Source of the DNA: Candidatus Melainabacteria bacterium 17Bon1m
GTDB lineage: Bacteria > Cyanobacteriota > Vampirovibrionia > Obscuribacterales > Obscuribacteraceae
Reading direction: 5' to 3'
Length of the DNA: 64,000 nt
Assembly (NCBI GenBank): GCA_032128875.1
Contig: JAVLKG010000005.1
Coordinates: 374,778 to 438,777 of the forward strand
Part shown: positions 32,672 to 58,865 of the stretch, piece after piece
How positions within the stretch are numbered: the stretch's first letter is position 1
Layout: each line of letters begins with the position of its first letter
The notes under the pieces: generated by a model
The model's database searches: none
Seen by the model: only the letters and a program-made list of their open reading frames with translations
What the model was told of the DNA's origin: nothing
Made by a program: the position numbers and the translations under genes

Positions 32672-33921
32672 CTCGGCGCGAAAACGATTCTTAGCAGTTG
32701 AAGAAAGAATAGAATCGACACGGCAGTCACAATGATCGCAATGATTGATTGTACGAACCATGCGGGCAATTTCTGTGGTTCGTCCGTTTTTTCTAATTTG
32801 TTCTCAGGCATTGCTGCGGGCATTGCCTCTTCTGCGATCTCTGCCGGTGCAGCTTTAGTTTCACTCGGCGCTCTGGTTTTGATTGGCTCTTCTTTTGTTT
32901 TCAGAGCTCTCAACTTTGTCCCGAGTACATCTCGCATTTCGGTTGCGTTTTCAAATCTCTCTTCGGGATTTTTTGCCAGCCCGCGCATTATCAACGCTTC
33001 CAGGTTAGCTCCTTCAATGCCGCTTAGATTGAGCGGAGCCGGGGCGGATGAGCGATGCATGCTCATCGTTTGTACTGGCGTTTCGCCATGAAAAGGTGGT
33101 CTGCCACTTAGACATTCGTACATCGTGCAGCATGAAGAATAAACGTCGGAGCGTGCATCCGTAGGTTTTCCTTCGCACTGCTCAGGGCTCATGTAGAGTG
33201 GGCTTCCAAACACCATTCCTTTCGCGGTAAGTCGTTGAATTTCTTCTGCGGTTGCAATGCGCTGGGCAATTCCAAAGTCGACTAACTTGATCTGTTCGGT
33301 GCCGTCTGCGCCTTTCGTCACGATTATATTGCTAGGCTTGATGTCTCTGTGAATAATGCCGAGTTGGTGCGCGACCGACAATGCACTCGATAATTGAATG
33401 AATATTGACTTTGTTCTTTCTATCGTCAGTGTATGTTCTGAGCCGATGATGTCTGCCAGGCTCTGACCTTCGACATATTCCATTACGTAATACGGGCAAC
33501 CGTTGTCCGTTATTCCGATGTCGGAAACCGCAATTAGGTTAGGGTGCTTGAGCGCAGCCACCGAGCCGATTTCGCGCATGAATCGGTAGACGCTTTCTTT
33601 CTTCTCGGCAAGAACCTTGGAAAGAACCTTAATAGCGACCGGCTGGTTGGTCTTTTCGTTTTTGCCTTTATAAACTTCGCCCATGCCGCCTTTGGCGATG
33701 AGCGAAACTATGCGATAGCGTCCATACAGCAATTCGCCGACAAATGCTTTGCCTGATTTTGCGGGCAAATAGGCAACATCGTCATCATCTTCTAATTCTG
33801 GATGACCGGGATTCTGTATTTCGGAAGTTTCGCCTTGATCAGAAACCGCCTGCGGCTCGATCGAGTTCGTCAGGTCAGTTACAGGCTCGTCACCGTGATT
33901 TTCAGTCATTGAGGATAACAA
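32668..33921 (-). CDS. Hanks-type Ser/Thr protein kinase, C-terminally membrane-anchored, with no extracellular sensor domain
   Basis: Kinase subdomains GKGGMGEVYKG, AIKVL, HRDIKPSNII, DFGIA, SPEQ. The single C-terminal TM helix WFVQSIIAIIVTAVSILFFLQLL is followed by only 9 residues. Confidence 0.9.
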   Translation of the reverse strand: MLSSMTENHGDEPVTDLTNSIEPQAVSDQGETSEIQNPGHPELEDDDDVAYLPAKSGKAFVGELLYGRYRIVSLIAKGGMGEVYKGKNEKTNQPVAIKVLSKVLAEKKESVYRFMREIGSVAALKHPNLIAVSDIGITDNGCPYYVMEYVEGQSLADIIGSEHTLTIERTKSIFIQLSSALSVAHQLGIIHRDIKPSNIIVTKGADGTEQIKLVDFGIAQRIATAEEIQRLTAKGMVFGSPLYMSPEQCEGKPTDARSDVYSSCCTMYECLSGRPPFHGETPVQTMSMHRSSAPAPLNLSGIEGANLEALIMRGLAKNPEERFENATEMRDVLGTKLRALKTKEEPIKTRAPSETKAAPAEIAEEAMPAAMPENKLEKTDEPQKLPAWFVQSIIAIIVTAVSILFFLQLLRIVFAPS

Positions 33922-39937: not shown

Positions 39938-40594
39938 ATGTCTCTTTTTTTTGAGCATGATCACAATGCATCGCCTGTTCTCGACCAGCCGGGATTTCTA
40001 TTCCCTGTAGAAGGGCGCCCTGACTTGCTTGAGTCAGGCGAGAGTTCTATCCCGCCCGGTGAGACTCTTGTTGCATCAAGCACTTCTGTTGATCGGCTCT
40101 ATGCCTATCTTGCCAGCGACTTCAATAAGTTTGACAGCAATCAAGATAAGAAGCTTGATGCCAAAGAATTTGAAGCTTCCCTTGCGACAACAACGAATAG
40201 TGATGAGTTGATGCTCTTGTCTTGGATGAGCAAGAACATTGATGGTTTGCAAAAACTGGGCGATCGCGACTCTGGCATTTCAATGGAAGATCTTGCCGGA
40301 CTCAACACTGCAATCAATAAAGGTACGGGAGACTTGGGTCTTGCTTTTCGACACACCGACTGGGTCGCACGCGGAGGCAGCAGTGCGGTTGGTGGTCTTG
40401 GAGGAGCTTTTCTTGGCTCTAAGCTTACAAGCGCTGCGTTTTCTATGAAAAGTGCCGCTGGTTTTGGTGCTGCCGTGTTCGGCACTCTGTCTGCCATTGA
40501 CGCGATCGGCTACTACATGTTTGATAAACCGAAGCTAGACCAGGCGTTGAAGGAACTGAACGAGATTCCGGATCCGAGCGCGAATCGAAGCTAA
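39938..40594 (+). CDS. Hypothetical protein with one EF-hand-like Ca-binding loop and a Gly/Ala-rich C-terminal hydrophobic region
   Basis: FDSNQDKKLDAKEF fits the 12-residue EF-hand loop pattern DxNxDxxxDxxE. The C-terminus is GGSSAVGGLGGAFLGSKL...AAGFGAAVFGTLSAI (glycine-zipper-like). AAGGAG lies upstream of the ATG. Confidence 0.55.
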   Translation: MSLFFEHDHNASPVLDQPGFLFPVEGRPDLLESGESSIPPGETLVASSTSVDRLYAYLASDFNKFDSNQDKKLDAKEFEASLATTTNSDELMLLSWMSKNIDGLQKLGDRDSGISMEDLAGLNTAINKGTGDLGLAFRHTDWVARGGSSAVGGLGGAFLGSKLTSAAFSMKSAAGFGAAVFGTLSAIDAIGYYMFDKPKLDQALKELNEIPDPSANRS

Positions 40595-40677: not shown

Positions 40678-40812
40678 GCTCGCAACATTAATTGTGTGGG
40701 AGGAACTGTAACATCTAAATTACCGTCGAATTATTTTGTATGATGTCCGTGAAGGCTGAATTGGAGCCGGTTTTAGAGCTAATTGTTGTCTAAGTTTAGA
40801 ACGGTGATTGTG

Positions 40813-41682
40813 ATGGCAGATCCTTTGAAAATCGTATCCAGCAACGTCTCTGGAAATTTCTTCGTCGATACGACCTGTATAAATTGCGACACGTGCCGTC
40901 AACTTGCGCCTAAGACTTTTGTCGACGCCGGTGAGTATTCGTCTGTTTTTGATCAACCGAAAACCGATGAAGATGTACTCGCTGCTACCAGGGCTCTCTT
41001 ATGTTGTCCGACCGGTTCGATTGGGACAAAGGAGAAGAACGACGCTAAAACCATTCGCTCCGAGTTTCCACTTTTGATTGAAGACAATGTGTATTACTCC
41101 GGATTCAATTCTCCGCGATCGTATGGTGGCAACAGTTTCTTCATCAAGTCGCCAAGCGGTAATTGGCTCATCGATTCTCCAAAGTTTCTGCCTTTCCTTG
41201 CCGAGCAGATAGCAACCATGGGCGGTATCAAGTATATTTTTCTTACTCATCGTGATGATGTCGCTGATGCTCAAAAGTATGCAGAGTATTTTTCTGCCAG
41301 TCGCATTATTCATCGCGACGAACTAAGTGCGCAGCCTGGCGCCGAGATAGTCATAGACGGTTATGATGCGCAGAATTTCGAAACTGATTTCACCGTAATT
41401 CCGGTGCCCGGTCACACCAAAGGTCATATGGTGCTTCTCTACAGAAACAAGTTTTTGTTTACCGGAGATCACCTTGCTTATAATCCTGAAGATAGGCACC
41501 TTTACGCGTTTTCCGATTACTGCTGGTATTCGTGGACAGAGCAGACGAAGTCTATGAAGAGGCTAAGCGAATATGATTTCGAGTGGGTGCTTGCTGGTCA
41601 CGGAGATCGAGGAAAACTTCCGACCACTGAAATGAAAAAGCAAATGGCACAGCTTGTGAAATCTATGGAGAAATCACATTAG
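40813..41682 (+). CDS. Fusion of an N-terminal single-cluster [4Fe-4S] ferredoxin-like domain and a metallo-beta-lactamase-fold domain
   Basis: CINCDTCRQLAP...LLCCP is the CxxCxxC...CP cluster motif. MBL-like blocks WLIDSP, FLTHRDDVAD, PVPGHTKGH, FTGDHL, LAGHGD. ATG at 40813 is chosen; the ORF track begins at a TTG at 40783. Confidence 0.75.
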   Translation: MADPLKIVSSNVSGNFFVDTTCINCDTCRQLAPKTFVDAGEYSSVFDQPKTDEDVLAATRALLCCPTGSIGTKEKNDAKTIRSEFPLLIEDNVYYSGFNSPRSYGGNSFFIKSPSGNWLIDSPKFLPFLAEQIATMGGIKYIFLTHRDDVADAQKYAEYFSASRIIHRDELSAQPGAEIVIDGYDAQNFETDFTVIPVPGHTKGHMVLLYRNKFLFTGDHLAYNPEDRHLYAFSDYCWYSWTEQTKSMKRLSEYDFEWVLAGHGDRGKLPTTEMKKQMAQLVKSMEKSH

Positions 41683-46564: not shown

Positions 46565-47791
46565 ATGAAGATGCATAAGATCCTATTTCTGTTGCCGTCA
46601 CGAGCGCTCTCCGGTGGTGTTTTAGTGGCTCGTCATCATGCGATGTTGCTTGCGGCGAAGGGCTACGAAGTTACAGTCGCCTACCTTCACACCTCGGATT
46701 TAGACAACGGTTCGGTCTTGCCAATAATTGAACCGGCGCAAGAGATTCTTTATTCAGAGCTGGACCGGGACATCACTTTTGATGCTGTTGTTGCAACTTG
46801 GTGGGAAACTGCTTATCACGCCGCACAAATTAAGGCGAGAAGGTATTTCTATTTCGTTCAAGGGTTTGAAGAACGGCTTTACCCTACAGATTCAGTTTGG
46901 CCATTGCTTGTGCAACGAACCTACCAGTCCGGTTTTAACTTCATCACTGTCAACAGCGGTCTGCAAAAGTATCTTCAAAACCAGTTTGGGCAATCGTCGA
47001 TTGTAATTCCGCCTGGTATCAATCTTGATGATTACGATTGTGAGCCAAAAATTGCGCGCGGCTCGGAATCATTGAGAGTACTCGTCGAAGGGGCGCCTGA
47101 CGCTGACTATAAGCGCGTAGCGCTGGCTTTTGAAGCATTGTCGCAGATTTCTTCCGTCGAAACGGTTTATGTGTCTCCAAAGGGCAAAGCGCGACCGGAG
47201 TGGAAGGTCGATTATTTCTTTGAGAGCGTACCTCCTGCCGAGATGCCATCGATTTGCAAGTCTTGCGATTTGGTTTTAAAACTAAGCACAGACGAAAGCT
47301 TTTCGCTGCCTGTTTTGGAGTCTTTCGCAGCAGGAGCCACAGCAATTACTGCTGATTACTACGGTGGCTCGGATTTCATTGTTGATGGTAAAAACGCGCT
47401 TGTAGTGGCAGTAGATGACCTTTCTGCAGCTGTTGCGGCGTTAAGAAGACTGCAGAGCGATAGAAAGCTTTTGAGCGAACTCAAGGCTCAGGCAAAAGCG
47501 ACGGCAGCAATATACTCGTGGAACAAGATGGCGGAGAAAATGGAAAGCGCGCTGCTCGCGGGCTTTGACTTTGAAGCGCCTGAGACTCCTCCGCTAGCCG
47601 GTTGTTTGGCACAGTATCAAGCTCTACATGCGATGCGTTTGGAACTTACTCAAGCCCAATTTGAAAAAGAGCACTACAAGAGCGCACACTCGAAAGTCTC
47701 TGCCGAACTGCATGGATCGCGCGCCTATCGTGTTGGTAATTCGCTTGTAAAAGCATTTCGTTCTATTGCGCGAAATGAGGTGGAACGATGA
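46565..47791 (+). CDS. Glycosyltransferase family 1/4 (GT-B)
   Basis: MKMHKILFLLPSRALSGGV. The C-terminal half contains ESFSLPVLESFAAGATAITADYYGGSDFIVDGKNALVV (EX7E-type motif). An AGGA RBS precedes the ATG at 46565. Confidence 0.85.
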   Translation: MKMHKILFLLPSRALSGGVLVARHHAMLLAAKGYEVTVAYLHTSDLDNGSVLPIIEPAQEILYSELDRDITFDAVVATWWETAYHAAQIKARRYFYFVQGFEERLYPTDSVWPLLVQRTYQSGFNFITVNSGLQKYLQNQFGQSSIVIPPGINLDDYDCEPKIARGSESLRVLVEGAPDADYKRVALAFEALSQISSVETVYVSPKGKARPEWKVDYFFESVPPAEMPSICKSCDLVLKLSTDESFSLPVLESFAAGATAITADYYGGSDFIVDGKNALVVAVDDLSAAVAALRRLQSDRKLLSELKAQAKATAAIYSWNKMAEKMESALLAGFDFEAPETPPLAGCLAQYQALHAMRLELTQAQFEKEHYKSAHSKVSAELHGSRAYRVGNSLVKAFRSIARNEVER

Positions 47792-49137
47792 CGCGGACAA
47801 AAGTCAGTTCCTTCGCAAACAAGTTGGCACCGGCGTATCTGACTGTGTTGATGCTATATCAGTTTTTGCTCTATTTCATGATCGGCAATATTTTTCATTC
47901 ACTCTTTTTGCCGATGATAGACCACACGCATTTTGCCATTGTTTGGGTAACTACAATTATTTTGATTCCATTTTTTGCTAAAGAGTGCAAAAACGCTTGG
48001 AATGAAAAGCGGATAGCTGAGCAGATTTTTCTCGTCTCTTGTGGTGTTTTCGTTTCAATTGCTTCGCTTAAAAGGCTTGGGACTGTTGAAGCTGTGTGGG
48101 GCTTGCTTACCGCAATTACCGTGTTCATGTTTCTATTGCTCGCACCCAAGCTTCTTAAGAAGAGGCATTATGCAGTTTTATTTTGGTTTGTCTGTATTCT
48201 TGCCGGAGTTCACGCGGTTAGCCAGATTTGCTTTGTATTAGGCCAAACACAGCAGTTTTGTGGTTTTAACGTCAACATGCCACATGGGCGATTGATGCGA
48301 GTTCCACACCTTCCATTGCTGTCCCTGCTGGATGGCTATACGGGAGGGTGGTTTACTAATCCCAATTGCTTAGCCAGTTACATCATGGCGATCCCAGCAA
48401 TTTCTATATTTCTGAGTCAGTCTGCTACAACCCGCTTAAAAGCAGCCCGCTGGCTCGCTTTAAGCATCTGCGGGCTAACATCAATAAGCCTGCTTTTGAC
48501 ATTCTCCCGTGCTGCTATTCTGTCAACCATGCTTGGAATGATACCGCTGGCGGTGTACGCATTGCGTCAGCGAAAGGTTCCGGTTTTTGCATCTGTTTCT
48601 TTCTTGTTTGTCCTCGTTGGCGTGCTTTTCTTTGCACAGATGCGATTCACAACATTGGGTGATCCGCTCAGTCTCAGTGGCAGAATGGATATTTGGAACT
48701 CTGTCAGTGAATCACTCCAGCGTTTGCCGTTTTTTGGATACGGAACTTTCAGAGGCACTAACACTGGCGAAACACCTCACAATGTCTTTCTTGCAAATCT
48801 TTTGTTCTATGGCGTTCCTGGCCTTTTCTCTTTGCTTTCTATGTTAGGCTCAGGAATCTACATGATCTGGCGCCAGGTCAAACGAGAGCCTAATTACGGC
48901 GTGCTTGCTCTGTTTGGTTTTCTCTTAGCCTACATTTGCGCTTACTCGCAGATTGAGTTCGTTTTCACATGCCCTCATTCGTTTTCGAATTCGGTTGCCT
49001 TGCTGGTGTTTGGTTTCCTTATTTATCTGAGCACTATCAAGCCAAAAGACATACAAACAGTTCGAGACAATGAAGCGGAATCAGAAATTCTCACAAAGGC
49101 TGTCGCAAACGGGCTACAAAAGGCTGTTCGCACTTAA
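47788..49137 (+). CDS. O-antigen ligase/polymerase-family (Wzy_C-type) polytopic membrane protein
   Basis: About 11-12 TM helices. The large-loop motif LSGRMDIWNSVSESLQRLPFFGYGTF...TPHNVFLANLLFYGVPGL fits the R-x3-W...GxG...HN-x-(F/Y)-L Wzy_C signature. The start overlaps the previous stop (ATGA). Confidence 0.8.
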   Translation: MTRTKVSSFANKLAPAYLTVLMLYQFLLYFMIGNIFHSLFLPMIDHTHFAIVWVTTIILIPFFAKECKNAWNEKRIAEQIFLVSCGVFVSIASLKRLGTVEAVWGLLTAITVFMFLLLAPKLLKKRHYAVLFWFVCILAGVHAVSQICFVLGQTQQFCGFNVNMPHGRLMRVPHLPLLSLLDGYTGGWFTNPNCLASYIMAIPAISIFLSQSATTRLKAARWLALSICGLTSISLLLTFSRAAILSTMLGMIPLAVYALRQRKVPVFASVSFLFVLVGVLFFAQMRFTTLGDPLSLSGRMDIWNSVSESLQRLPFFGYGTFRGTNTGETPHNVFLANLLFYGVPGLFSLLSMLGSGIYMIWRQVKREPNYGVLALFGFLLAYICAYSQIEFVFTCPHSFSNSVALLVFGFLIYLSTIKPKDIQTVRDNEAESEILTKAVANGLQKAVRT

Positions 49138-49143
49138 GCGGTT

Positions 49144-51375
49144 TCACCTCTGGCAGCGCAAGTAAGCGGCTGTGATGTAATCTGACAGCGCCCCTGGGCT
49201 ATTATTGACCAAGCTAATCTCTTCAATCTCATCTGGATAATCGTCGAAAATGCGCCCGGGCTGTGTGTAAACAGCAGGCGCAGCGGGACCAAAAATTGGA
49301 ATTTCGAATGCACTCGCATTACCGCTTTTGTATCGTACAACGCAGTTAATTAGTGCAGGTTTTCCCGTGGTCAGGAAGTCTAAGGATTGAAAATTTTGAT
49401 GTGTAAATGAACCGACTGGGTGTATCGAAAGCGTCTGGGCATCAACTGTTTTCAGCTTGCTTTCCGGACTCATAGACAATGCTTGTGTGTTGAGAATATT
49501 CTCCGGCGCATACTTAATTCCTGTTTGTATTTGATCAGGCGGTGCAACAACTTCAATGCGCGGGTATTCGAAGATGGTTGTTTTGTTGCCATTATTGCGA
49601 AAACAGATGGTCACGGTTTGTCCAGAGTAGCGTTTTAGATCTACTTCGTTGACGTTGCTTTGCTTTTCGAACTCACCGTCAGAGCCTCCACCATGTTTAA
49701 TAAGAAGTTGATTCTGTGCTGGAAGACTTGCTGCCGGTGTTGCGTTCCCTTTCAAAACTTTGCAGTGGAGTCTTGCCACAGCGCTGTTCTTTGGTATCGT
49801 CACATGCCAGAAAACTTTGCTATCTCCTTGCAATGCGAGATTGAGGTGGAGATAGTTTTTCCAACTCTTTTGCCGGCTCGGATCTGAACCCTTGACCCAA
49901 AAAACGCGTCCGCCATTGACCCTCTGCAGCTCAACGGAATTCATTGCGAAGTCGCCCTGTAAGAGATATTCGCGATGTGGCGCAAATATGGACCAGCTGT
50001 TCTTTTCAAGCGGCACTGCAAGCGTGTAAGGCTCCAAATTCACCAATTTAAAAATCATTCTGGTCGCATATGTCGGCGCATGAGCGAAGTTGCGCAGCAT
50101 TGATGCAACGTAAGGTGCTCTGTTTGTTAGATAAAATTGCTTATCTTCGAAAGACTTGCTGGAGCTCAGATTCAACAAAAGCACCAATGTAAAAACTATC
50201 AATGCTCCTGCGCGTACGGCACGTTGGTACTGGGTGGCAAAGCTAAAGCAATAGAGCGCGATTCCAATCAGTCCGCACCAGTAAAGAGAACTCACAGAGC
50301 AGTTTGTTGGCGCGATGAAAGGACGTGCCGTAGCTATTAGACCTACTGTTGCTAAACCCATAATTGCGCACAGTAGTGATGGTGCTAACGCGTCCGCGAA
50401 TCTCTTTTTGTCAGTTAGCTTGAACGCGGCAAACAAAAGAAAAGTAATACACACGAGCCCGAACAGACCGGCATTAAAGGATTGTTCTAGGTGTCCATAA
50501 TGGCTTCCCGTGCCATTTGCGAATGGACGTCCCAGTATGTTCAGAAAGATTCCGAAGTTGAATCCGAGAACTTGCTCGGCAATTGACCGTGTGTGTTCCT
50601 GCCTGACAGTGAATGATGCTAAGTAAGGTGCCAAGGAAAGAACTGATGCCGCAATCGCCCATGTATAGTCACAGAGCTTGCGTTTTCCGTTTAAATAGAC
50701 TTGCACGAATAGCAGTGGCAGCGCGGTCAGGCTAAGCGCTGTTGTCCAACACCCGATCACGGCTGCCAGCGTGGATGCTATGTTAGCTGAAACTCGGCGA
50801 GGAAATCTTGCCAATGCCCAAATGCTCAAAAGGCTCATAAGCAGAGACAATTGCCAGGTGACAGCGAATGTCGGGTGAGCGAGAACTGTTGTTTGCGAGG
50901 GTGCGAACAGGATTAGGCTAAGTGGGAGAAACATCGCAAGCCTAGTATTGGCGCTGTATTTGCCGAACATGTAATCGTTCATGAGCAGAACGCGCAAAAG
51001 CAGAAGTATTAGAGAGAGGCTAAGCATCGCGGTTTGCGAGGCGGCTGTCAGTTTGCAATTCAACCAGAAGAGAGCAAGTCCGAGCGCAAAGCTGTGACCA
51101 TTGATCAGCGTGTCGCGAAAATAGTTCAACCAGTTGTAGTCACTGGCACTCATGCGCTCAATGAGTCTGAAGAAAATGACGTCGTCGTTGCTGGGTATAT
51201 CGATACCCGATGTGTAGAGAAAACTGCAAGCGCGGACAATCGGAATTAGCGCCGCCAGGGCTAAAAACAAGCAAATCGAGAAGGTGACCTTCTTACCTTG
51301 GTTTTGCTCTTCGAATTCCTGATTCTTCTGCGCTACTGTTTCCACGCTGCCTATGACATAGATGCAGGGAGCCAA
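49144..51375 (-). CDS. Large polytopic membrane protein with a ~300-aa C-terminal extracytoplasmic domain; GT-C-fold glycosyltransferase-like
   Basis: 743 aa. There are ~11-13 hydrophobic helices in the first ~430 aa. An acidic motif sits in the first loop (DIPSNDDVIFFRL). The C-terminus is beta-rich. No confident family assignment. Confidence 0.55.
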   Translation of the reverse strand: MAPCIYVIGSVETVAQKNQEFEEQNQGKKVTFSICLFLALAALIPIVRACSFLYTSGIDIPSNDDVIFFRLIERMSASDYNWLNYFRDTLINGHSFALGLALFWLNCKLTAASQTAMLSLSLILLLLRVLLMNDYMFGKYSANTRLAMFLPLSLILFAPSQTTVLAHPTFAVTWQLSLLMSLLSIWALARFPRRVSANIASTLAAVIGCWTTALSLTALPLLFVQVYLNGKRKLCDYTWAIAASVLSLAPYLASFTVRQEHTRSIAEQVLGFNFGIFLNILGRPFANGTGSHYGHLEQSFNAGLFGLVCITFLLFAAFKLTDKKRFADALAPSLLCAIMGLATVGLIATARPFIAPTNCSVSSLYWCGLIGIALYCFSFATQYQRAVRAGALIVFTLVLLLNLSSSKSFEDKQFYLTNRAPYVASMLRNFAHAPTYATRMIFKLVNLEPYTLAVPLEKNSWSIFAPHREYLLQGDFAMNSVELQRVNGGRVFWVKGSDPSRQKSWKNYLHLNLALQGDSKVFWHVTIPKNSAVARLHCKVLKGNATPAASLPAQNQLLIKHGGGSDGEFEKQSNVNEVDLKRYSGQTVTICFRNNGNKTTIFEYPRIEVVAPPDQIQTGIKYAPENILNTQALSMSPESKLKTVDAQTLSIHPVGSFTHQNFQSLDFLTTGKPALINCVVRYKSGNASAFEIPIFGPAAPAVYTQPGRIFDDYPDEIEEISLVNNSPGALSDYITAAYLRCQR

Positions 51376-52607
51376 TCAAAGTCTTTGATTGCAGAGGCTA
51401 TATCTACATCATTTTCATGAATGTATGCAAGCAGCGTTCGCGCTTGTTCTAAATCGAGTATTTTTTGTTCTACGAGTGATTTAAGCGTGTTCGCGCCGTC
51501 CATTGTCATTTGAGTCATAAAGCCGGATTCGAGCAATGAGGCAGCAAGCGACTGGCGTTTTTTTAGAGCCCTTTGCGTAGCTACCTCGAGGTCTTCAGGA
51601 TGGATACAACCCGTCACTTTCAGCAACTCGGCAACTTCCAATTCTTCTTCGAAGTACTCTTCCTGTTCCTCCAGCGCCTGCAAAACTTGAGCTATGTCCC
51701 AATCGACTGTTTCCAACTTCTTGGTCAGTTGAATTGCTTGGTCTTCTTGAAGCGCCCCTTCCATGAGCATGTTGAGAAGTTCATTCAAAGCAGTGACGCT
51801 TTTTTCAGAACAGAATCCGCAGGAGATGAGTGCTTCATCGATTGACTTATCCTCAGTCACTTCTATTTCTCGCGCTGAGATCAGTTCTCTCTCGTTTATC
51901 AAGCCGGACAGATACATCAGATATCCTATATCGCTGTAAGGATAAGGATCTTCCTCCACCACCCCTAATTCCATCAGCGGCTGCAAGAGTGGTAGCTTGC
52001 GCAATCGCGCAGACCGAAGGGCTTGCAGTACCTGGCTTCGTGTGGCAATTCCGTCGCGAATAATTCTAAGACCCAATAGAGCAGAATTTAGCAAATCAAC
52101 AGTAATGACGCCACGGTTGAGCAATACCTGCCCTAGTGGCAAAGAAGCGTTGATACCGTCAACAATTGCTTTCTCAATCTGCTTCTGCTGCGCCGCTGCC
52201 GATTCGCGCAACAGGTCTCCTAGGCGGCTTGCTTTTACGCCGGCGGCCGTGGGTAGAGCGTTGACACGAGCCACTGCTTCTTCAATGGTCAAAGCCTGCT
52301 GTTTGATGAGCTTTAGGGCAGTGACTCCATTGGTGACGGAAAGTGTGCCGTTGACAATCAGATTTTGCACTTCCAGTGCTTTTCCTAAGAGCTCTTCGGC
52401 AAGGTGCCCTTCCATCGACAGAATTCTGCCGAGCGGGACGTGCATTTTCACAGCCAGCGCGGTGCAACTGTCGAGCGTTTCCTGATCGATCATTGTCGAC
52501 TGCACAAGCAAATCGCCGATCTTGATGGGCAGAGGTTTCTCAGCCTCTGGCTGCAAGTCTTGCCCTTCGGAAAAATTGAATGGTATAAAGTACTCTTCCG
52601 ACATCAC
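51351..52607 (-). CDS. Stand-alone four-repeat MshEN/T2SSE_N-like protein, paralogue of 20091..21353
   Basis: KIGDLLVQSTMIDQETLDSCTALAVKMHVPLGRILSMEGHLAEELLGKALEVQ; RLGDLLRESAAAQQKQIEKAIVDGINASLPLGQVLLNRGVITVDLLNSALLGL; two further degenerate units follow. No ATPase or other output domain. GTG/ATG start at 52607/52604, with GGAG upstream. Confidence 0.72.
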   Translation of the reverse strand: MMSEEYFIPFNFSEGQDLQPEAEKPLPIKIGDLLVQSTMIDQETLDSCTALAVKMHVPLGRILSMEGHLAEELLGKALEVQNLIVNGTLSVTNGVTALKLIKQQALTIEEAVARVNALPTAAGVKASRLGDLLRESAAAQQKQIEKAIVDGINASLPLGQVLLNRGVITVDLLNSALLGLRIIRDGIATRSQVLQALRSARLRKLPLLQPLMELGVVEEDPYPYSDIGYLMYLSGLINERELISAREIEVTEDKSIDEALISCGFCSEKSVTALNELLNMLMEGALQEDQAIQLTKKLETVDWDIAQVLQALEEQEEYFEEELEVAELLKVTGCIHPEDLEVATQRALKKRQSLAASLLESGFMTQMTMDGANTLKSLVEQKILDLEQARTLLAYIHENDVDIASAIKDFDWLPASMS

Positions 52608-52619
52608 CTTGCTCCAAAA

Positions 52620-54431
52620 TTACTTGTAGCTCTTGGAGATAATCAGCGGGAAGTTAGCTTCGACTGCTCTATCCTTGGCTTTGCGTGCAGCGGACAGCAA
52701 TTGCTGGACCGAATCCCCGTCAGCGGGCAGATTGGCGACACCGAAAGCAAGCTTCAGGCTCTTCTTGTCCAGGTTTTTTATCAGTGGCGTCACTGTCAGA
52801 GTTTGCAGGATTCGGTTAGCGACATATGCGGCCGATGCGGTTCGCGTGTTCGGCAGAAGCAGTGCATATTCGAGCATCTCGTAGTGCCCTAGGATGTCTA
52901 GCGGACGCTTCACCATGTCAATGCGTCGGGCCGCGTTTTGCACCGCAGACGGTGGCAAAACATCAAACATGGTCTGCAAATCGCCGCGCTTTTGATTGCT
53001 GTCGTACTCTTTTTTTCTGTTCATTTCAAAAAGAATGATAGACATTGGCCAGCCATAGGCTTCGAATCGATAAAACTCATGCTGCAGATAAAGCAAGAAT
53101 GCAGAGTAGCTCAGCACGCCTGTTTCCTGGCGGACCATTGATTCTAAAAGAGCGTCTACTTCTTTCTTGCCATCGCCCAGAAAATCGAGTGCACCGACCT
53201 TTACTGCGTCCGGTGGCTTGATCTCAATTAATTCGCAAGTGAGGAAATTGAAAATCAGTGGAATCCAGTCAGCTGACTCCATCGGTCGGTCGCGCAAAAG
53301 ATCGTTGAGCGAGTATTTGTGCCCGATTGTTTTATACACCTCAATCTGTTTTTCGACATTGAGAGGCTCGCCCTTGGTCAACATGAGGCGAACTTCCGTG
53401 TCGCCCAGATTGCGTGATTTCTTGACCAAGTACGCGTCCGTGGTGAGACCCATCCGCTCGAGATGTTTTTTCTTGTCGAGAAGGGCGATACCTTCCATGA
53501 CTGTGTCCATCATCGGTTTGAGAACATTGCGTACTTCTGTCTTTTCATCAGGGAAGAATGCAAATGTCCCTTTGCGCCAGGTGATTAGCTCTCGCACGGC
53601 GTTGTCGCCTAAGATACCGGCGACGTGCGCGTACATGGCGACGCCGTTAAGGAAATAAATCTCTCCGACACTCTCGTCGCCGAGAATCTCCAGGCGGCCC
53701 GTTAATCCGTCGTTGTTCAAGTTCGACACTAAAGTCGACACTTGAGTGCTTTCGAGAGAGCCTTCCAATGACTTCGTCTCGAGCTGGGGTTCGGGAGCTG
53801 TAAAACGAGGACCGTGCTGCGATTGTGAGGGCATTTTGTCGCCCAGATAATCGACGCCACCACTTTGTGGTTGCTGAAATGTGGAAAGAGAACCGGAAGA
53901 CTGAGTAGGGTGAAAACTGCCTGAGCTGCTCGGCGAGCCCTCTGGATTATAGCCGGCAAGGTCGGCAGGATTTACGGCGGGGGGTGAATTGAAACCGCCC
54001 GACGCATCCTGAAACCTTGCTTCTGGTTGCATCGCGGGCACAGGCTGTGTCAGTGACGCATTCGGATCAAGCGCCGGCATCCCCGTTTTCGAGCGGTCCA
54101 TGGCGCGAGTACTTTGCACCGACATACAAACCATGTCGTTTACCAGATCGAAATCACCAGACTCCTGCTGCCATAGCATCTGCGCTTCGGTGCCGTCATC
54201 TTCAAGCAAAGTCCAGAGCGGATTATTTCTGCCGCTTTCTACTTTTACACTTAGGCTGTACGTCAAATTTGTGTTTGGTGCAACGAAAAGCTGCTCAACA
54301 TCGCGGGGTTGGTTGTCCCGCGCTTGCTCGAACATGGATTGGTATATATCCATGGTCGGAATGTGTTGGATATTTGGAAGATTGATTCTGCCCCGGCTGG
54401 GCGGAGGTTGTGGCTTTTTCGAACCAAACAT
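52620..54431 (-). CDS. Multidomain regulator: N-terminal domain, S/P/Q-rich linker, PATAN/DUF4388-like domain, and a C-terminal degenerate GGDEF-like domain with a retained RxxD I-site
   Basis: DUF4388-like LEILGDESVGEIYFLNGVAMYAHVAGILGDNAVRELITWRKGTFAFFPDE. GGDEF-fold cues ETGVLSYSAF..., PMSIILFEMN, RPLDILGHYEMLEYALLLPNT (nt 52866-52907 encode RPLD-ILGHY-EMLEY). Confidence 0.7.
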   Translation of the reverse strand: MFGSKKPQPPPSRGRINLPNIQHIPTMDIYQSMFEQARDNQPRDVEQLFVAPNTNLTYSLSVKVESGRNNPLWTLLEDDGTEAQMLWQQESGDFDLVNDMVCMSVQSTRAMDRSKTGMPALDPNASLTQPVPAMQPEARFQDASGGFNSPPAVNPADLAGYNPEGSPSSSGSFHPTQSSGSLSTFQQPQSGGVDYLGDKMPSQSQHGPRFTAPEPQLETKSLEGSLESTQVSTLVSNLNNDGLTGRLEILGDESVGEIYFLNGVAMYAHVAGILGDNAVRELITWRKGTFAFFPDEKTEVRNVLKPMMDTVMEGIALLDKKKHLERMGLTTDAYLVKKSRNLGDTEVRLMLTKGEPLNVEKQIEVYKTIGHKYSLNDLLRDRPMESADWIPLIFNFLTCELIEIKPPDAVKVGALDFLGDGKKEVDALLESMVRQETGVLSYSAFLLYLQHEFYRFEAYGWPMSIILFEMNRKKEYDSNQKRGDLQTMFDVLPPSAVQNAARRIDMVKRPLDILGHYEMLEYALLLPNTRTASAAYVANRILQTLTVTPLIKNLDKKSLKLAFGVANLPADGDSVQQLLSAARKAKDRAVEANFPLIISKSYK

Positions 54432-54985
54432 TCGCGTCTCTCTTCTCTAGGGGTACGTTTATCGGTCATACGGCAGCTCATGGCTTAAAGGTGTAATTCC
54501 CCATTATTTGATCAAAGAACCAGGCATATGAGTAGATTCGAGAGATTGATGTCAAGTAACAGGTTCGTTTGAATGCTTTAAACGCTTGTGGGGCTTTGAT
54601 CTCGAGGATCTGCTCTGCGAGAAAAATTTGAGCCTGTGGTGATCGAGGGACGGAAGGGCGAAAGGCTGTCAAGGGTTCGTTGGTTACCAAATTGAAATTC
54701 TAAAGTGCCGCTTGGCAATGTGTTGCAACTAATTAAAACTATTGCACCCTCCGGAGCCACTGAGAGTGTCCGATGAAAGCCTCATAGGCTGACACTTTTG
54801 GAAGATGAACTAAGCTTCATTGCTACCTGAACATAGCTTCAGCCGTGTCAGGAGATGTGCAGAGTTTCTATTGACTATAATTGTCAGTCGGAAAAGGTTT
54901 AGAGCTAGTCTGGAATTCGTGGCCTGCGTTTTGCCCCCTGGGCGTTTCTGCCCTTATCGGTCTAGTGTTCACGGAAACCCGTTAA

Positions 54986-55912
54986 ATGAGCCAAGGAAGC
55001 AATAGTCCAGTAATGCCAACTCCTTTAGCTGAAGCTACGAGAAACAAGATTGAAACAGACAGCGCCATCGCCGATGTTGCGTCGCGTCTTGATCAGCAGC
55101 CAGCGATAACTTCCACTGAATCCTTCGGGTTCTTCTTGTTTCGCTCACTTCGCGAAATGACAAATATCAAGTTTGCACTGGCAAGCTTTGTCGTCAACAA
55201 TTTGCGACGTCGTTACCGCCGGTCTGTGCTCGGTTTTGCATGGAGCTTGCTCAATCCGATTCTGACCATGTGCGTCATGACCGCTGTGTTTTCCATTTTG
55301 TTCAAGCAGAACCCGAAAGATTTTGGTGTCTACGTTTTCACCGGTCTTTTGCCTTGGAGTTTTTTCTGCGAATCAGTAGTTGCTGGTAGTGGCTCACTTA
55401 CAGGCGCCGAGAGTTATCTCAAGAAAGTCTACATACCGAAGCTGTTCTTCCCCATGGTGACTGTTGCGACAGAAGCAGTGAATTTTGCGTCAAGTATATT
55501 TGCTCTGATTCTTTTGGCTGCGGTTGCTGGTTTTCACTTCACGTGGACTTGCGTATTGGTCTTGCCCATCACAGCGCTCCTTTTCGCTTTCACATACTGC
55601 TGCGCACTTTTCTGTTCGATTGCCACGGTGTATTTCCGCGATTTCGCTCATATTTTGCGAGTCGGCTTGGGGGCTGTTTTTTACACTGTACCTATCGTCT
55701 ATCCGGTCGCAATGATTCCTGCGGATTACAGATGGTTTTACGCGTACCATCCCATGGCCCGCTTTGTAGAGCTATATAGGCTGGCAATCTGTGAAGGTCA
55801 AATTCCCTCTCTCGAGGTCTGGGCTTCTCCACTTGTCGTTACCGTTGTGGCATTTCTGCTTTCATTTGCTCTGCTCAAAAAGACTGAGCGCGACATCATT
55901 TTCCGCCTGTGA
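54986..55912 (+). CDS. wzm: ABC-2-type polysaccharide export permease
   Basis: 308 aa. The N-terminal cytoplasmic segment is followed by RRRYRRSVLGFAWSLLNPILTM, the typical ABC-2 start, and six TM helices. The cognate ATPase gene lies directly downstream. Confidence 0.88.
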   Translation: MSQGSNSPVMPTPLAEATRNKIETDSAIADVASRLDQQPAITSTESFGFFLFRSLREMTNIKFALASFVVNNLRRRYRRSVLGFAWSLLNPILTMCVMTAVFSILFKQNPKDFGVYVFTGLLPWSFFCESVVAGSGSLTGAESYLKKVYIPKLFFPMVTVATEAVNFASSIFALILLAAVAGFHFTWTCVLVLPITALLFAFTYCCALFCSIATVYFRDFAHILRVGLGAVFYTVPIVYPVAMIPADYRWFYAYHPMARFVELYRLAICEGQIPSLEVWASPLVVTVVAFLLSFALLKKTERDIIFRL

Positions 55913-55918
55913 GGTTTT

Positions 55919-56725
55919 GTGGACGCACTAATTGAAATCAAGAACGCCACTTTGCGGTTTCGTATTTATCGAAATCGTACTCCTGCGCTAAAGGAAGCCG
56001 TTATTCGCGTGCTGTCCCCGAAAAAAACAGCGAGCGAGGAAGTAATTGAGTTCAATGCTCTGCAAAATTTGAATCTATCCATTAAAGGTGGAGACCGTCT
56101 CGGCATCATTGGTTTGAATGGTGCCGGCAAGTCCACTCTGCTGAAAATGATCGTCGGAATTTATCCTCCGCAGCATGGTTCTGTTCATGTCAAAGGAAAA
56201 GTGACACCACTCATTGAATTGGGCACCGGCTTTGATCACGAATTGAGCGGAAGAGAAAACATATATTTGAACGGCGCCCTTCTGGGACGCTCGTTCAAGC
56301 AAATGCGTTCGCTCGAAGAGGCAATTATCGATTTTTCCGGACTTGAAGACAAAATCGATATGCCGATTAAGTACTATTCCAGTGGGATGCTCGGACGGCT
56401 TGCTTTCTCGATCGGCACCATTATGGAGCCGGAAATCCTTCTGGTTGACGAGGTCTTTTCGACGGGCGACGCTCAATTCGTCGAAAAAGCAAGAAACCGA
56501 ATGGACCATTTGATTTCCAAATCATCGATCGTTGTTATCGTTTCGCACAGCATGGACCACATCGTCCATTTCTGCAACAAGGTCGTTGTTCTCAACAAAG
56601 GCGCTGTTGTAGCTGAAGGGGACCCAGAGGAGATGGTCGAATACTATCGGCAGAACATTGCCAACGTCGGCGCTGCTCCCGCTCCTTATAAACCGGCTTC
56701 GCCACAACCTGCATTGACCACATAA
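55919..56725 (+). CDS. wzt: Polysaccharide/O-antigen export ABC transporter ATP-binding protein (short form, no C-terminal carbohydrate-binding domain)
   Basis: Walker A GLNGAGKST, signature YSSGMLGRLAFS, Walker B ILLVDEV, H-loop VSHS. The 268-aa length leaves no room for a Wzt-type CBM. GTG start. Confidence 0.92.
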   Translation: MDALIEIKNATLRFRIYRNRTPALKEAVIRVLSPKKTASEEVIEFNALQNLNLSIKGGDRLGIIGLNGAGKSTLLKMIVGIYPPQHGSVHVKGKVTPLIELGTGFDHELSGRENIYLNGALLGRSFKQMRSLEEAIIDFSGLEDKIDMPIKYYSSGMLGRLAFSIGTIMEPEILLVDEVFSTGDAQFVEKARNRMDHLISKSSIVVIVSHSMDHIVHFCNKVVVLNKGAVVAEGDPEEMVEYYRQNIANVGAAPAPYKPASPQPALTT

Positions 56726-56730
56726 TCAGT

Positions 56731-58152
56731 ATGTCAAACGCACCCAAGATACTTGCAATCGTTCCATCGTTGATAGCATCTTGCCAAATCAACGTGCTGA
56801 AGCCGCTCAATAAGCTTGCCGAGAGAGGCAAGGTCGAATTTCGCTGGATGCTGGAATCAAAGGCGGATGTTACTGCCCTTGCTTGGTGCGACGTTGTGAT
56901 TTTTTGCCGCAACACAGAGCCGGCATATGGACATTTATTGAATGCCGCGGTGTGTGCTGGAAAGCCGATCATTTTTGATCTGGATGACAATTTCTGGGAT
57001 ATTCCATATGACACGGATCCGGAATTGGCGCGCTATCATCGCCTCCCTCCTCGCCTGGCCCAATTAGAAAAATACTTGTCTTTCTCCAGTCTTGTTCGCG
57101 TGTACAGCCCTGTACTGGCTGAGCGTGTTAGTGCATTCAGCCAGAAAATCAAAATGCTGAAGTCCGGCTTTGATTTCTCGCTAGTATCAGGCAAGCGGCA
57201 CAAGCAGAACGGAAGCACGCGCATCGTGTACGCAACGAGCCGCATCGTCGATGACCAATATCATGAATTTCTCGACGGCATCATTCGAATCCTCGACGTT
57301 TACCAGGATAGAGTCAGTCTGACTATTTGTGGCTGCAAACCCAGAGAGCTAGCCGCGCGGCGGGGAGTGGAGCTTATACCGCTCTACCCAGACTATGATA
57401 GATTTTTGATGGACTTTCATGCCCGTGGCTTTGACATTGGGCTTGCACCATTGCCAGATACCGTTTTTCATCGCTCGAAAAACAACACGAAATTTAGAGA
57501 CTATGGTGCATGCCGGGTCGCTGGTGTTTACTCTGACGTAGATGTTTATTCATCATGCATTGAGGATGGCAGCACCGGAATTCTTGTCAGCAACACCGCT
57601 CAAGGCTGGTTTGACGGTGTCTCGAAGCTTATCGAAAATCCGGCGTTGACCGAAAGAATCAAAGACACTGCTTACAAGCATGTCTACGATAACTACCGGC
57701 AGGAATTAGTCGAAGAAGAGTGGCTTGTCGATATCACGTCAGTCTTGTCTCAACCTAGTCGAGAAGACTCTTTGCGGGCTGTGGAAACACAAGATATCCG
57801 TGTGAAAGCGGATTTCTTTGGACTATATGGAATCCGCATTCCAGGCGAGTCTCCGGATGGGCAAAAGACGGCTAATTTGCTTTTGGAAGTTCTCACACCC
57901 GACGGTTATATCTTGCGGGAGGCTACCAGTTCGAATCTGCGCATTCTTGAAGATGGTGATATCGAGATTACTTTCGAGCCTATTGCAAATTCTCAGCGCC
58001 GAGAGTTTGTTTTCCGGTTGGTCTCTCTGCCGAGAGAGTTTCAACCAAAACCAGATTCCGAATGGACTACTGGTTGGATTCCGCCCAGCGGATTGATGCA
58101 AATGCTTTATCAATCGAAGCAACTCGTGTCTGCGGGGATAGATAAACGATGA
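56731..58152 (+). CDS. GT-B-like glycosyltransferase with a C-terminal ~100-aa beta domain
   Basis: The N-terminal ~340 aa show a GT1/4-like pattern (IIFDLDDNFWDIP, KFRDYGACRVAGVYSDVDVYSSCIEDGSTGILV). The C-terminal domain is similar to the product of the next gene. Confidence 0.7.
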   Translation: MSNAPKILAIVPSLIASCQINVLKPLNKLAERGKVEFRWMLESKADVTALAWCDVVIFCRNTEPAYGHLLNAAVCAGKPIIFDLDDNFWDIPYDTDPELARYHRLPPRLAQLEKYLSFSSLVRVYSPVLAERVSAFSQKIKMLKSGFDFSLVSGKRHKQNGSTRIVYATSRIVDDQYHEFLDGIIRILDVYQDRVSLTICGCKPRELAARRGVELIPLYPDYDRFLMDFHARGFDIGLAPLPDTVFHRSKNNTKFRDYGACRVAGVYSDVDVYSSCIEDGSTGILVSNTAQGWFDGVSKLIENPALTERIKDTAYKHVYDNYRQELVEEEWLVDITSVLSQPSREDSLRAVETQDIRVKADFFGLYGIRIPGESPDGQKTANLLLEVLTPDGYILREATSSNLRILEDGDIEITFEPIANSQRREFVFRLVSLPREFQPKPDSEWTTGWIPPSGLMQMLYQSKQLVSAGIDKR

Positions 58153-58865
58153 ATTCCATTACTCATTTGGTATCCAATATAGTGCCATTAAATGAAGGCG
58201 GCAACCCGTGCTCGAGTGATTGTCCTGCCGTCCCTGAGCGTTTTGAGCCACAGAGTAAAGACGAACTTCTGCAACACATTCAAACTCTAGAAGCTGAGCT
58301 GCATAGCGTCAGAGAGAAAAGCAAATTTATTGCACAGGAGCTGGATCTGTTCCGCCAGCGTCGCGCTATCTTCTGGTCGGATCGTTTTCGCAATACATTC
58401 GATGCCTGGAGTTTGCTTAGCAAAGGCTTTCAGCGATTGAAGGACGACACCGCAATTTTTGCAAGCGATCTAAAAGGGTACCGTTTGCAGCCAAGTTTGA
58501 GCATGTTGCGAGTCTCGTATCTCAGTTACAAAGTCAAGCTGAATACCAAGGGTTTGACTGGTGTCTATCTTGCTCCTGTCGTCGAATTTCCGCTGCAAAA
58601 AGGCGAAATTGTCCTACAAATTATGGAAGAGTCCAAAAGGCTTCTTGTTGAAACTTCTGTGCCGGTGGCGCAAATTAGTGACGATGGTCCGGTCGCATTT
58701 AGATTTCCGCCCCTTCAAAATTCAGACAATGAGCTAATATTCAACATTTTTGTTCAAAATGTTGATGTGCCTGTAAGGCTTTTAGAAATGCGCCGCTACG
58801 CGCTTGGCGGTTTCGGAAGACTTTCTACAGTCTGCTTTGCCGGATTCATTTTCGACGGTGAGTAA
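58149..58865 (+). CDS. Hypothetical protein: coiled-coil N-terminus plus a beta domain shared with the preceding glycosyltransferase
   Basis: ATGA overlap with the upstream gene. Coiled-coil-like ELLQHIQTLEAELHSVREKSKFIAQELDLFRQ. The C-terminal ISDDGPVAFRFPPLQNSDNELIFNIFV parallels ILEDGDIEITFEPIANSQRREFVFRLV of the upstream protein. Confidence 0.5.
   Translation: MNSITHLVSNIVPLNEGGNPCSSDCPAVPERFEPQSKDELLQHIQTLEAELHSVREKSKFIAQELDLFRQRRAIFWSDRFRNTFDAWSLLSKGFQRLKDDTAIFASDLKGYRLQPSLSMLRVSYLSYKVKLNTKGLTGVYLAPVVEFPLQKGEIVLQIMEESKRLLVETSVPVAQISDDGPVAFRFPPLQNSDNELIFNIFVQNVDVPVRLLEMRRYALGGFGRLSTVCFAGFIFDGE

Follow-up and report, generated by a model that had tools for sequence, protein, structure and literature searches.

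A PATAN-GGDEF regulator and a tandem MshEN_N protein form a conserved gene pair, a candidate c-di-GMP receptor cassette, in polysaccharide loci of Obscuribacterales

The stretch of DNA analysed here, 64,000 nucleotides (nt) of Candidatus Melainabacteria bacterium 17Bon1m (contig JAVLKG010000005.1, positions 374,778 to 438,777; the window), carries three tightly packed genes within a polysaccharide locus. Gene 1 encodes a soluble protein with a PATAN domain and a degenerate GGDEF domain, gene 2 a soluble protein built from four tandem MshEN_N-type modules, and gene 3 a large membrane protein. We propose, with a probability of about 0.5, that genes 1 and 2 specify a soluble two-protein receptor cassette for c-di-GMP (cyclic diguanosine monophosphate) that is specific to the Obscuribacterales and acts on adjacent membrane glycan machinery. 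The domain identities, residue conservation and synteny behind this proposal are observed; the binding of ligand, the complex between the two proteins, its target and the sign of its effect are predicted. No published description of this gene combination was found in the searchable literature.

Results

Genes 1 and 2 are a conserved pair

All coordinates are positions in the window. The three genes lie on the minus strand, and the open reading frame (ORF) listing confirms them at the positions given in an initial annotation of this DNA, which had been made from the sequence alone:

52620..54431, minus strand: gene 1, 603 amino acids (aa), ATG start; soluble regulator with an N-terminal domain, a low-complexity linker, a PATAN domain, a middle region and a degenerate GGDEF domain
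51351..52604, minus strand: gene 2, 417 aa, ATG start preceded by GGAG; soluble, with four tandem MshEN_N-type modules
49144..51345, minus strand: gene 3, 733 aa from a GTG start; membrane protein of the glycosyltransferase-C (GT-C) fold with C-terminal beta-sandwich domains

The gap between genes 1 and 2 is 12-15 nt, as first described, its length depending on the start chosen for gene 2. The ATG at 52604 is the most likely start and leaves 15 nt; the alternative is a GTG at 52607 (51351-52607). A 25-nt overlap had also been described between genes 2 and 3, and this depends on the start of gene 3: a TTG at 51375 (49144-51375) gives the overlap, whereas the GTG at 51345 leaves a 5-nt gap. Gene callers on identical contigs place the start at the GTG, and the orthologue in locus L005 is called with an overlapping start.

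To survey the distribution of gene 1, family-specific peptide patterns from its middle region were used in a scan of 185,579 species genomes. They retrieved 52 loci, and metagenome contigs raised the number to 57. Nearly all of the 52 are labelled Obscuribacterales or Melainabacteria, Candidatus Obscuribacter phosphatis included, and proteins identical or nearly identical to those of the window lie on contigs labelled Candidatus Melainabacteria or Obscuribacterales. Gene 2 stands directly 3′ of gene 1, on the same strand, in 54/54 loci where the sequence continues; the other three loci end at gene 1. More than half of these junctions (29/54) are stop/start overlaps of 1 or 4 nt, and every pair locus sits among polysaccharide genes. 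The conserved unit is the gene 1-gene 2 pair, not the trio.

Gene 1 retains an inhibitory site in a decayed cyclase domain

Five regions and two motifs can be delimited in gene 1:

54117..54431, minus strand: N-terminal conserved domain, aa 1-105; E46 and W73 invariant across 23 family members
53766..54116, minus strand: S/P/Q/G-rich linker, aa 106-222, recognised by composition; variable in length, in a gap-rich part of the alignment
53469..53765, minus strand: PATAN (DUF4388) domain, aa 223-321; PF14332, E-value 3.6e-12, 46.8 bits against a cut-off of 25, model positions 1-121 of 122
53124..53468, minus strand: middle region, aa 322-436 (LLRDRPME...NFLTCxLIEIKPP); strongly conserved, with many invariant columns
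52665..53123, minus strand: degenerate GGDEF domain, aa 437-589; PF00990, 30.4 bits against a cut-off of 23.8
52896..52907, minus strand: inhibitory site (I-site) R509-P-L-D512 (RxxD), matching RPAD and RPSD in the alignment to solved cyclases
52866..52880, minus strand: former active-site motif E518-M-L-E-Y in place of GG[DE]EF, from alignment to solved cyclases

Both the PATAN and the GGDEF domain exceed their Pfam cut-offs, which bears out the initial assignment of a PATAN protein with a degenerate GGDEF domain that keeps its I-site. The gene 1 family profile matches solved GGDEF domains (E-value 2.7e-12), and the stricter TIGR00254 model gives 28.1 bits, below its cut-off of 37.4. The RxxD motif lies five residues upstream of the former GGDEF motif. 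An active diguanylate cyclase is not what the residues describe, with EMLEY at the motif and F-E-M-N at the upstream DxD-type positions.

Conservation across 50 orthologues, down to about 35% identity, separates the two sites. R503, K508, R509, D512 and R540 are invariant in 50/50, R540 occupying what we take to be the position of the third I-site arginine of PleD. At the five positions of the former active site, the residues vary among E/Y/Q, G/M/T/A, L/Q/T, E/D and F/Y. An invariant I-site beside drifting active-site positions shows selection on the inhibitory site and not on catalysis. A kept I-site beside a drifting catalytic motif is, at the level of sequence, the pattern expected of a c-di-GMP receptor.

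The remainder of the protein is less readily placed. Neither Pfam nor NCBIfam matches the N-terminal domain (aa 1-105), no Response_reg match indicates a receiver (REC) domain, the C-terminal domain being GGDEF, and no transmembrane or hydrophobic span is present (maximum 19-aa hydropathy 1.13). All 39 gene 1 homologues share the same architecture.

Gene 2 consists of four helical modules of MshEN_N type

The four modules of gene 2 differ in how well they keep the residues of known c-di-GMP sites:

52260..52523, minus strand: module 1, aa 28-115; both xLG cores; aligns to c-di-GMP-bound PilF GSPII-B; 17/22 relaxed-motif positions; candidate c-di-GMP site
51969..52226, minus strand: module 2, aa 127-212; R127-L-G and P156-L-G cores and a complete hydrophobic triad; 19/22 positions; best candidate c-di-GMP site
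51660..51932, minus strand: module 3, aa 225-315; degenerate, the second half reading S-I-D with the Gly lost
51378..51638, minus strand: module 4, aa 323-409; degenerate, both halves without Gly (E-V-A and S-L-A)

NCBIfam NF053729, a model of the MshE-related c-di-GMP motif, scores 69.9 bits against whole gene 2 over four stretches (cut-off 38), and all four modules are homologous to the 53-residue NF053729 module because each scores alone. The Pfam MshEN/T2SSE_N model (PF05157) gives no match to gene 2 at an E-value of 1 or lower. As the Pfam model is silent, the MshEN assignment draws on NCBIfam, on profile comparison with the Protein Data Bank and on structure. In the profile comparison, the gene 2 family matches PilF (E-value 9e-13) and MshE of V. 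cholerae (5HTL, E-value 2.5e-5), module 2 falling on MshE residues 7-61.

The AlphaFold model of gene 2 (predicted local distance difference test score, pLDDT, 77) is all-helical, with four six-helix repeats in which a short-long-short-long helix pattern recurs four times. Each repeat comprises a four-helix part and two extra helices; beta-strands occur nowhere, and the alpha/beta MshEN_C subdomain is absent. Foldseek aligns the model locally to the c-di-GMP-bound GSPII-B domain of Thermus PilF over 54 columns at 0.8-0.9 Å root-mean-square deviation and 39-41% identity, the matching module not being specified. Whole-chain searches return designed helical toroids only, and we set these aside: the local 54-residue matches alone are meaningful. 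The protein is soluble. The initial description of gene 2 as four MshEN repeats is upheld by the structure and by the PilF/MshE profile matches, agrees with the whole-protein score against NF053729, and needs qualifying in that PF05157 is silent, no module reaches the NF053729 cut-off singly, the C-terminal subdomain is missing and modules 3 and 4 are degenerate.

The MshEN motif in its published relaxed form, [RKPN]hGxxhhxx[GAS]hhxxxxhxxxhxx[QNKRYWST], has 11 constrained positions, and a module contains two such 24-residue motifs. The eight half-motifs of gene 2 score 8, 9, 9, 10, 8, 6, 5 and 8 of 11. Among orthologues, 34/53 score 21-22 of 22 positions in module 2. The position-3 Gly is found in 0% of the gene 2 family for half 3b, 8% for half 4a and 0% for half 4b.

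Published work on MshEN bears directly on these patterns. The isolated four-helix MshEN_N subdomain binds c-di-GMP with a dissociation constant of 0.35 µM, and the MshEN_C alpha/beta subdomain is dispensable for binding (PMC5013675). The third-position Gly is critical (PMC5013675, PMC12002112), its replacement leaving poor if any binding, and changes of Arg or Gln cost at most fivefold (PMC5013675). Modules 1 and 2 retain the glycines and hydrophobic residues with which MshE and PilF contact c-di-GMP and are, from their residues, plausible c-di-GMP sites; modules 3 and 4, in which three of the four half-motifs lack the Gly, are not.

The tandem MshEN_N module is a broad family with links to PATAN

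An exhaustive profile search with gene 2 returned 615 clusters (50% identity) at an E-value of 1e-30 or lower, with full-length four-module matches; the named members are Melainabacteria. Among the best 149 clusters, about half are roughly 400 aa long, and the rest carry low-complexity tails or, once, TPR repeats. No output domain was found in the C-terminal extensions of the long proteins, which are mostly low-complexity tails. Four sampled paralogues have unrelated neighbourhoods without a gene 1-like gene. The tandem MshEN_N module is a broad uncharacterised family, in which the tie to gene 1 is confined to the gene 2 orthogroup.

Some long paralogues share features of their own. P0104, P0150 and P0095 (loci L064:6001-8463, L065:6001-7509) are four-module proteins with long P/A/Q/S-rich tails, and the two tails inspected end in a short KKRLxDxxP-like motif. 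P0104 and P0150 also share a conserved, unrelated neighbourhood containing an SNF2 helicase, an unknown protein of about 390 aa and an Fe-superoxide dismutase.

A link between PATAN and MshEN exists outside the pair. P0049 (265 aa, 60 member sequences) joins a PATAN fragment and a canonical Pfam MshEN domain (PF05157, 7e-18) in a single chain, a natural fusion. PATAN has known partners in PilB1 and PilC; the PATAN domain of PixE binds PilB1 residues 1-366 and not the C-terminal part of PilB1, and the helical insertion of PATAN resembles repeats at the N1 domain of pilus ATPases (bioRxiv 10.1101/2021.06.11.447907). PATAN is also found fused to the cyclic-dinucleotide receptor ComFB (PMC12448109).

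Gene 3 is a GT-C-fold membrane protein with predicted outward-facing domains

The AlphaFold model of gene 3 (pLDDT 84.4, predicted template modelling score 0.83) has a membrane half and a strand-rich C-terminal half, with two features of note:

51181..51192, minus strand: first-loop S52-N53-D54-D55 motif, about 9 residues after the first transmembrane helix
49147..49977, minus strand: C-terminal beta-sandwich region, aa 457-733; strand-rich in the model and resembling carbohydrate-binding modules (CBMs)

Foldseek matches the membrane half with probability 1.00 to AftB (9dlh), ArnT (5ezm), PimE (9dm5), ALG3 (9s6r) and STT3 (6ftg) and with 0.97 to PglB (6gxc); TM-scores are modest (0.27-0.50), so that the GT-C likeness is one of fold only. 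The C-terminal half matches the CBM22 tandem 4xup, carbohydrate-binding regions of GH101/EngBF and similar beta-sandwiches, in an arrangement of two CBM-like domains. S52 and D54 do not vary among 18 family members, which range down to 24% identity, and N53 reaches at least 90% conservation. The Foldseek matches and the invariant D54 agree with the initial view of gene 3 as GT-C-like with an acidic first-loop motif and a large C-terminal domain.

No Pfam or NCBIfam family matches gene 3, which places it outside the described GT-C sequence families, and only 19 homologues were found. Its helix count is ambiguous when taken alone (11-13 spans). The short, acid-free, K/R-dense loops of the family all lie on one face, as the positive-inside rule would have it, and this bias tentatively assigns both the first loop and the C-terminal domains to the outer face, provided that the short helix 87-100 is not membrane-spanning. 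We predict from the model that gene 3 is a GT-C-fold glycosyltransferase, possibly with a polyprenyl-phosphate-linked sugar donor.

Genomic setting

The pair lies in a glycan locus whose nearest neighbours are as follows:

47788..49137, plus strand: Wzy_C (O-antigen ligase/WaaL-type) gene, convergent with gene 3; PF04932, E-value 7.6e-15
54432..54985, no strand: divergent intergenic spacer between gene 1 and wzm, 554 nt
54986..56725, plus strand: wzm/wzt ABC-transporter genes, divergent from the three-gene operon; wzm (ABC2_membrane) at 54986-55912 and wzt (ABC_tran) at 55919-56725

The divergence from wzm/wzt and the 6 nt between the stops of gene 3 and the convergent Wzy/WaaL-like gene are as initially described. 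The surrounding 30 kb form a glycan locus with rmlA-D-type genes, a Bac_transf initiating transferase, several GT2 and GT1 genes, a WsaF-like transferase, Acyl_transf_3, Wzy_C, wzm/wzt, and methyltransferase and epimerase genes. No Rfam family, c-di-GMP riboswitches included, was found in the window, nor in the 554-nt spacer at an E-value of 1 or lower. A promoter and terminator scan gave signal counts at or below shuffle expectation and does not define the limits of the operon. PADLOC returned no match for anti-phage defence, and a defence role was dropped on that account.

Several associations recur around the pair in other genomes. Pair neighbourhoods often contain a Hanks-type kinase and a Tyr-phosphatase. 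In the window the edge of the glycan locus carries a Hanks-type Ser/Thr kinase (32668-33921, minus strand), and in other Obscuribacterales loci a kinase, often with the Tyr-phosphatase, stands just upstream of gene 1 (c19, c25; L024, L027, L032, L044, L046, L058 and others), an arrangement that suggests a second regulatory layer. Downstream of wzt are a 473-aa gene with GT1 matches at sub-threshold level only (56731-58152, plus strand) and a 238-aa gene of no family (58149-58865, plus strand). Within the same sub-clade these two (clusters 16 and 18) are kept beside genes 1 and 2 in 11 and 10 loci, exceeding gene 3 in frequency, and in some loci are directly divergent from gene 1 with no intervening wzm/wzt. 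One sub-clade (L008, L022, L023, L041) has sulfate-activation genes upstream of gene 1, namely a CysN/C-like GTPase with an adenosine 5′-phosphosulfate (APS) kinase and a gene of the 3′-phosphoadenosine 5′-phosphosulfate (PAPS) reductase family; L007 and L009 have weak or faint sulfotransferase-family matches only. These genes hint at sulfated polysaccharides in some relatives. Pair loci also occur in metagenome-assembled genomes labelled Actinobacteria, Bryobacterales, Flavobacterium psychrophilum, Proteobacteria and Drouetiella (L034, L047, L060, L061, L023, L041); because the pair is otherwise strictly Obscuribacterales, these six look mis-binned or mislabelled.

Other genes of the window stand apart from the pair. 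Within the glycan locus, a ferredoxin-like 4Fe-4S domain is fused to a metallo-beta-lactamase-fold domain (40783-41682, plus strand); a gene just outside it strongly matches DUF6929/DUF6910, whose function is unknown (30298-31233, plus strand; E-value 4e-62). Two ORFs have no Pfam family (39938-40594, plus strand, 218 aa; 18353-19933, plus strand, 526 aa). Two paralogous PAS-histidine kinases of about 606 aa each are adjacent with a stop/start overlap (9136-10956 and 10953-12776, minus strand); genes for an outer-membrane factor (14594-16375) and for an RND efflux pair (25704-30169) lie further along.

Discussion

Proposed mechanism and alternatives

We propose that a single message with translational coupling yields the products of genes 1 and 2 and that the dead GGDEF domain of gene 1 would bind c-di-GMP at its kept RxxD site, as in PelD-type receptors. 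c-di-GMP is perhaps also bound at modules 2 and 1 of gene 2, and modules 3 and 4 are probably protein-contact surfaces. The partners are likely to join by contact between PATAN and MshEN_N, on the model of the PixE PATAN domain and the PilB1 N-terminus. Occupancy by c-di-GMP would switch the complex, which would then act on membrane glycan machinery encoded next to it. The candidate target here is the co-transcribed gene 3, a predicted GT-C-fold glycosyltransferase with outward CBM-like domains, which may alter or lengthen the rhamnose-containing glycan that Wzm/Wzt exports, close to the WaaL-type ligase step. The partnership of PATAN and MshEN put forward in the initial annotation is plausible in light of the PixE/PilB1 precedent, the P0049 fusion and the 54/54 adjacency. 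Its coupling of the module to glycans is borne out to the extent that all loci are polysaccharide loci; gene 3 itself is only an occasional partner.

A number of observations weigh against this proposal, and they concern the ligand, its supply and the target. Taken singly, modules 1 to 4 of gene 2 score 30.7, 36.2, 16.9 and 20.9 bits against NF053729, each below the cut-off of 38. None of the eight half-motifs meets all 11 relaxed-motif positions (0/8), both Gln positions of module 2 are replaced in this genome, by Gly and Leu, and GSPII domains close to consensus may still fail to bind c-di-GMP (PMC12002112). The window contains no diguanylate cyclase, and a regular-expression search of 1.1 Mb of related loci found no canonical GG[DE]EF protein, a result that is uninformative genome-wide; the literature documents c-di-GMP turnover in a different Melainabacteria order only, through HD-GYP domains. 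As to the target, the gene 3 family accompanies the pair in only 5 loci, all closely related, and a distant member occurs without the pair (L006). The four-repeat paralogues in unrelated contexts imply that the MshEN_N module is not intrinsically linked to glycans.

The sub-threshold modules and the lack of a cyclase in 1.1 Mb of related loci fit a pair that acts as a c-di-GMP-independent scaffold or adaptor, in which the GGDEF remnant and the MshEN_N-like bundles serve protein contacts and RxxD has a structural or other-ligand role. Non-binding GSPII domains are common, XpsE and PilF GSPII-A being examples, and the helical hairpins of the PATAN insertion, akin to the repeats that start the ATPase N1 domain, may simply pack together. 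We nevertheless judge such a scaffold quite improbable: the five basic or acidic residues of the I-site region are invariant in every orthologue while the catalytic motif decays, which is hard to explain structurally, and module 2 comes within one position of the full relaxed motif, or reaches it, in the 34 orthologues noted above. The "dual" c-di-GMP gating of the initial annotation is uncertain, with the gene 1 I-site under strict selection on one side and, on the other, gene 2 half-motifs that are nowhere complete and modules that all fall short of the cut-off.

The gene beyond gene 2, present in 50 loci, bears on the identity of the target. In 20/50 it encodes a large polytopic membrane protein read in the same direction, with 2 further probable fragments; the 20 comprise 12 YfhO-like proteins, 5 of the gene 3 family and 3 of an unknown family of about 14 spans. 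The commonest alternative occupant matches the Pfam YfhO model, and YfhO is presumably GT-C-type. The third-slot families are unrelated at profile level (gene 3 against its YfhO-like counterparts, below 6% probability), and solved structures searched with the profiles of clusters 4, 12 and 13 gave no match. In the remaining 28/50 loci, an opposite-strand glycan gene (MBOAT, GT2, Acyl_transf_3) or some other gene follows gene 2, which also counts against a membrane enzyme as fixed partner. The trio is not a conserved unit, its synteny among relatives being confined to the 5 loci with gene 3. Lack of synteny in relatives, which the initial annotation had named as grounds for rejecting its proposal, is thereby partly observed.

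These data could mean that the pair senses c-di-GMP and that its target is not gene 3, which would be one of many lineage-specific glycan enzymes to have ended up in the operon. The target would then be another shared step, such as Wzm/Wzt export, chain initiation or acylation; alternatively the pair would link glycan output to type IV pili by way of PATAN. The rarity of gene 3 beside the pair, the 28 loci without a codirectional large membrane protein and the mutual non-homology of third-slot proteins all favour this explanation, as do the known PATAN partners, PilB1 and PilC, and the recurrence of wzt, MBOAT/DUF1574, Acyl_transf_3 and GT2 genes around the pair. We consider it unlikely, since no neighbour family is universal within 9 kb (the commonest is present in 24/57 loci), no pilus genes were seen in any locus, and a codirectional third gene is nearly always a large polytopic membrane protein at a short gap or overlap. 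Because 20-22 of 50 third slots hold large membrane proteins of unrelated families, action of the pair on a membrane glycan enzyme remains viable if the partner is interchangeable. In its extended form, which we hold only tentatively and regard as doubtful, the pair is a portable order-wide receptor complex that docks on interchangeable large membrane glycosyltransferases of the gene 3, YfhO-like and 14-span families.

Co-location of three unrelated genes through genome compaction, with no functional coupling, would suit the mosaic, gene-dense nature of polysaccharide loci and the lack of any promoter or terminator signal above chance to delimit the operon. For genes 1 and 2, the adjacency in 54/54 loci down to about 35% identity, together with the 29 stop/start overlaps, greatly exceeds what chance would produce; this explanation is effectively refuted for the pair and is very improbable overall.

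Significance

Known c-di-GMP receptors for polysaccharides act on cytoplasmic-face synthases (PilZ on BcsA or Alg44, PelD, NfrB), and we know of no GT-C enzyme reported under c-di-GMP control. The pair would belong with c-di-GMP receptor control of polysaccharides, already familiar in the style of PelD and NfrB; what would be new is the receptor architecture, along with a testable function for PATAN beyond pilus motors. Were the pair indeed a portable complex for interchangeable glycosyltransferases, it would be the first second-messenger control at an outward-facing GT-C step, the first role for PATAN beyond the control of pili and heterocysts, and it would give the apparently large, uncharacterised tandem MshEN_N family of 615 clusters its first function. 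It would also offer a first handle on envelope regulation in the Obscuribacterales, a non-photosynthetic sister lineage of cyanobacteria that includes the wastewater organism Ca. Obscuribacter phosphatis and has, to our knowledge, no cultured member. Because the proteins from genes 1 and 2 are moderately sized and soluble, binding and interaction work in vitro is feasible without culturing.

Comparison with known systems

PelD, a membrane-anchored protein with a GAF domain, is the c-di-GMP receptor and post-translational activator of the Pel polysaccharide machinery. Like gene 1, it has a degenerate GGDEF domain that has lost catalysis and kept RxxD, and it is encoded inside a polysaccharide locus. 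Gene 1 is unlike it in being soluble, in carrying PATAN and a novel N-terminal domain and in always standing beside a separate MshEN_N protein; with no transmembrane span, and with only the DUF4388 and GGDEF models matching, it falls outside the PelD family. The NfrB/PRK15489 glycosyltransferases resemble gene 2 in coupling an MshEN-type module to polysaccharide synthesis, and the gene 2 modules weakly match the MshEN part of their models. In NfrB, a GT2 enzyme activated by c-di-GMP, however, a single C-terminal MshEN is fused to the enzyme, whereas gene 2 is free-standing with four modules and its candidate partner is a GT-C enzyme.

The PatA-type proteins PixE and PixG (PATAN-REC) offer a parallel for the contact between the two proteins, with PATAN as output or contact domain and the N-terminus of an MshEN-type ATPase as partner. 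Here there is no REC domain and no pilus context, and the MshEN partner lacks an ATPase; the input, which is phosphorylation in PixE/PixG, would at gene 1 be c-di-GMP on a dead GGDEF domain. The N-terminus of Thermus thermophilus PilF, the best sequence and structure match of gene 2, has three tandem GSPII/MshEN domains, of which B and C bind c-di-GMP and A does not, and a mixture of binding-competent and degenerate tandem modules is likewise predicted for gene 2. Each PilF module is a complete domain, alpha/beta subdomain included, and the three are fused to an ATPase, whereas gene 2 has only the four-helix part with two extra helices in every repeat.

A single glycan machine served by two c-di-GMP receptors, of which one descends from a degenerate GGDEF domain, is known from cellulose secretion, where the PilZ domain of BcsA acts alongside BcsE. 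That system differs from the pair in using PilZ and GIL domains and a GT2 synthase, with no PATAN or MshEN. Gene 3 finds its counterparts among GT-C enzymes with extracytoplasmic carbohydrate-binding domains (AftB/Emb, ArnT, PimE, YfhO), with which it has the fold and the acidic first-loop motif in common; it differs from YfhO in having no profile-level homology to the YfhO-like proteins that take the third slot in other Obscuribacterales.

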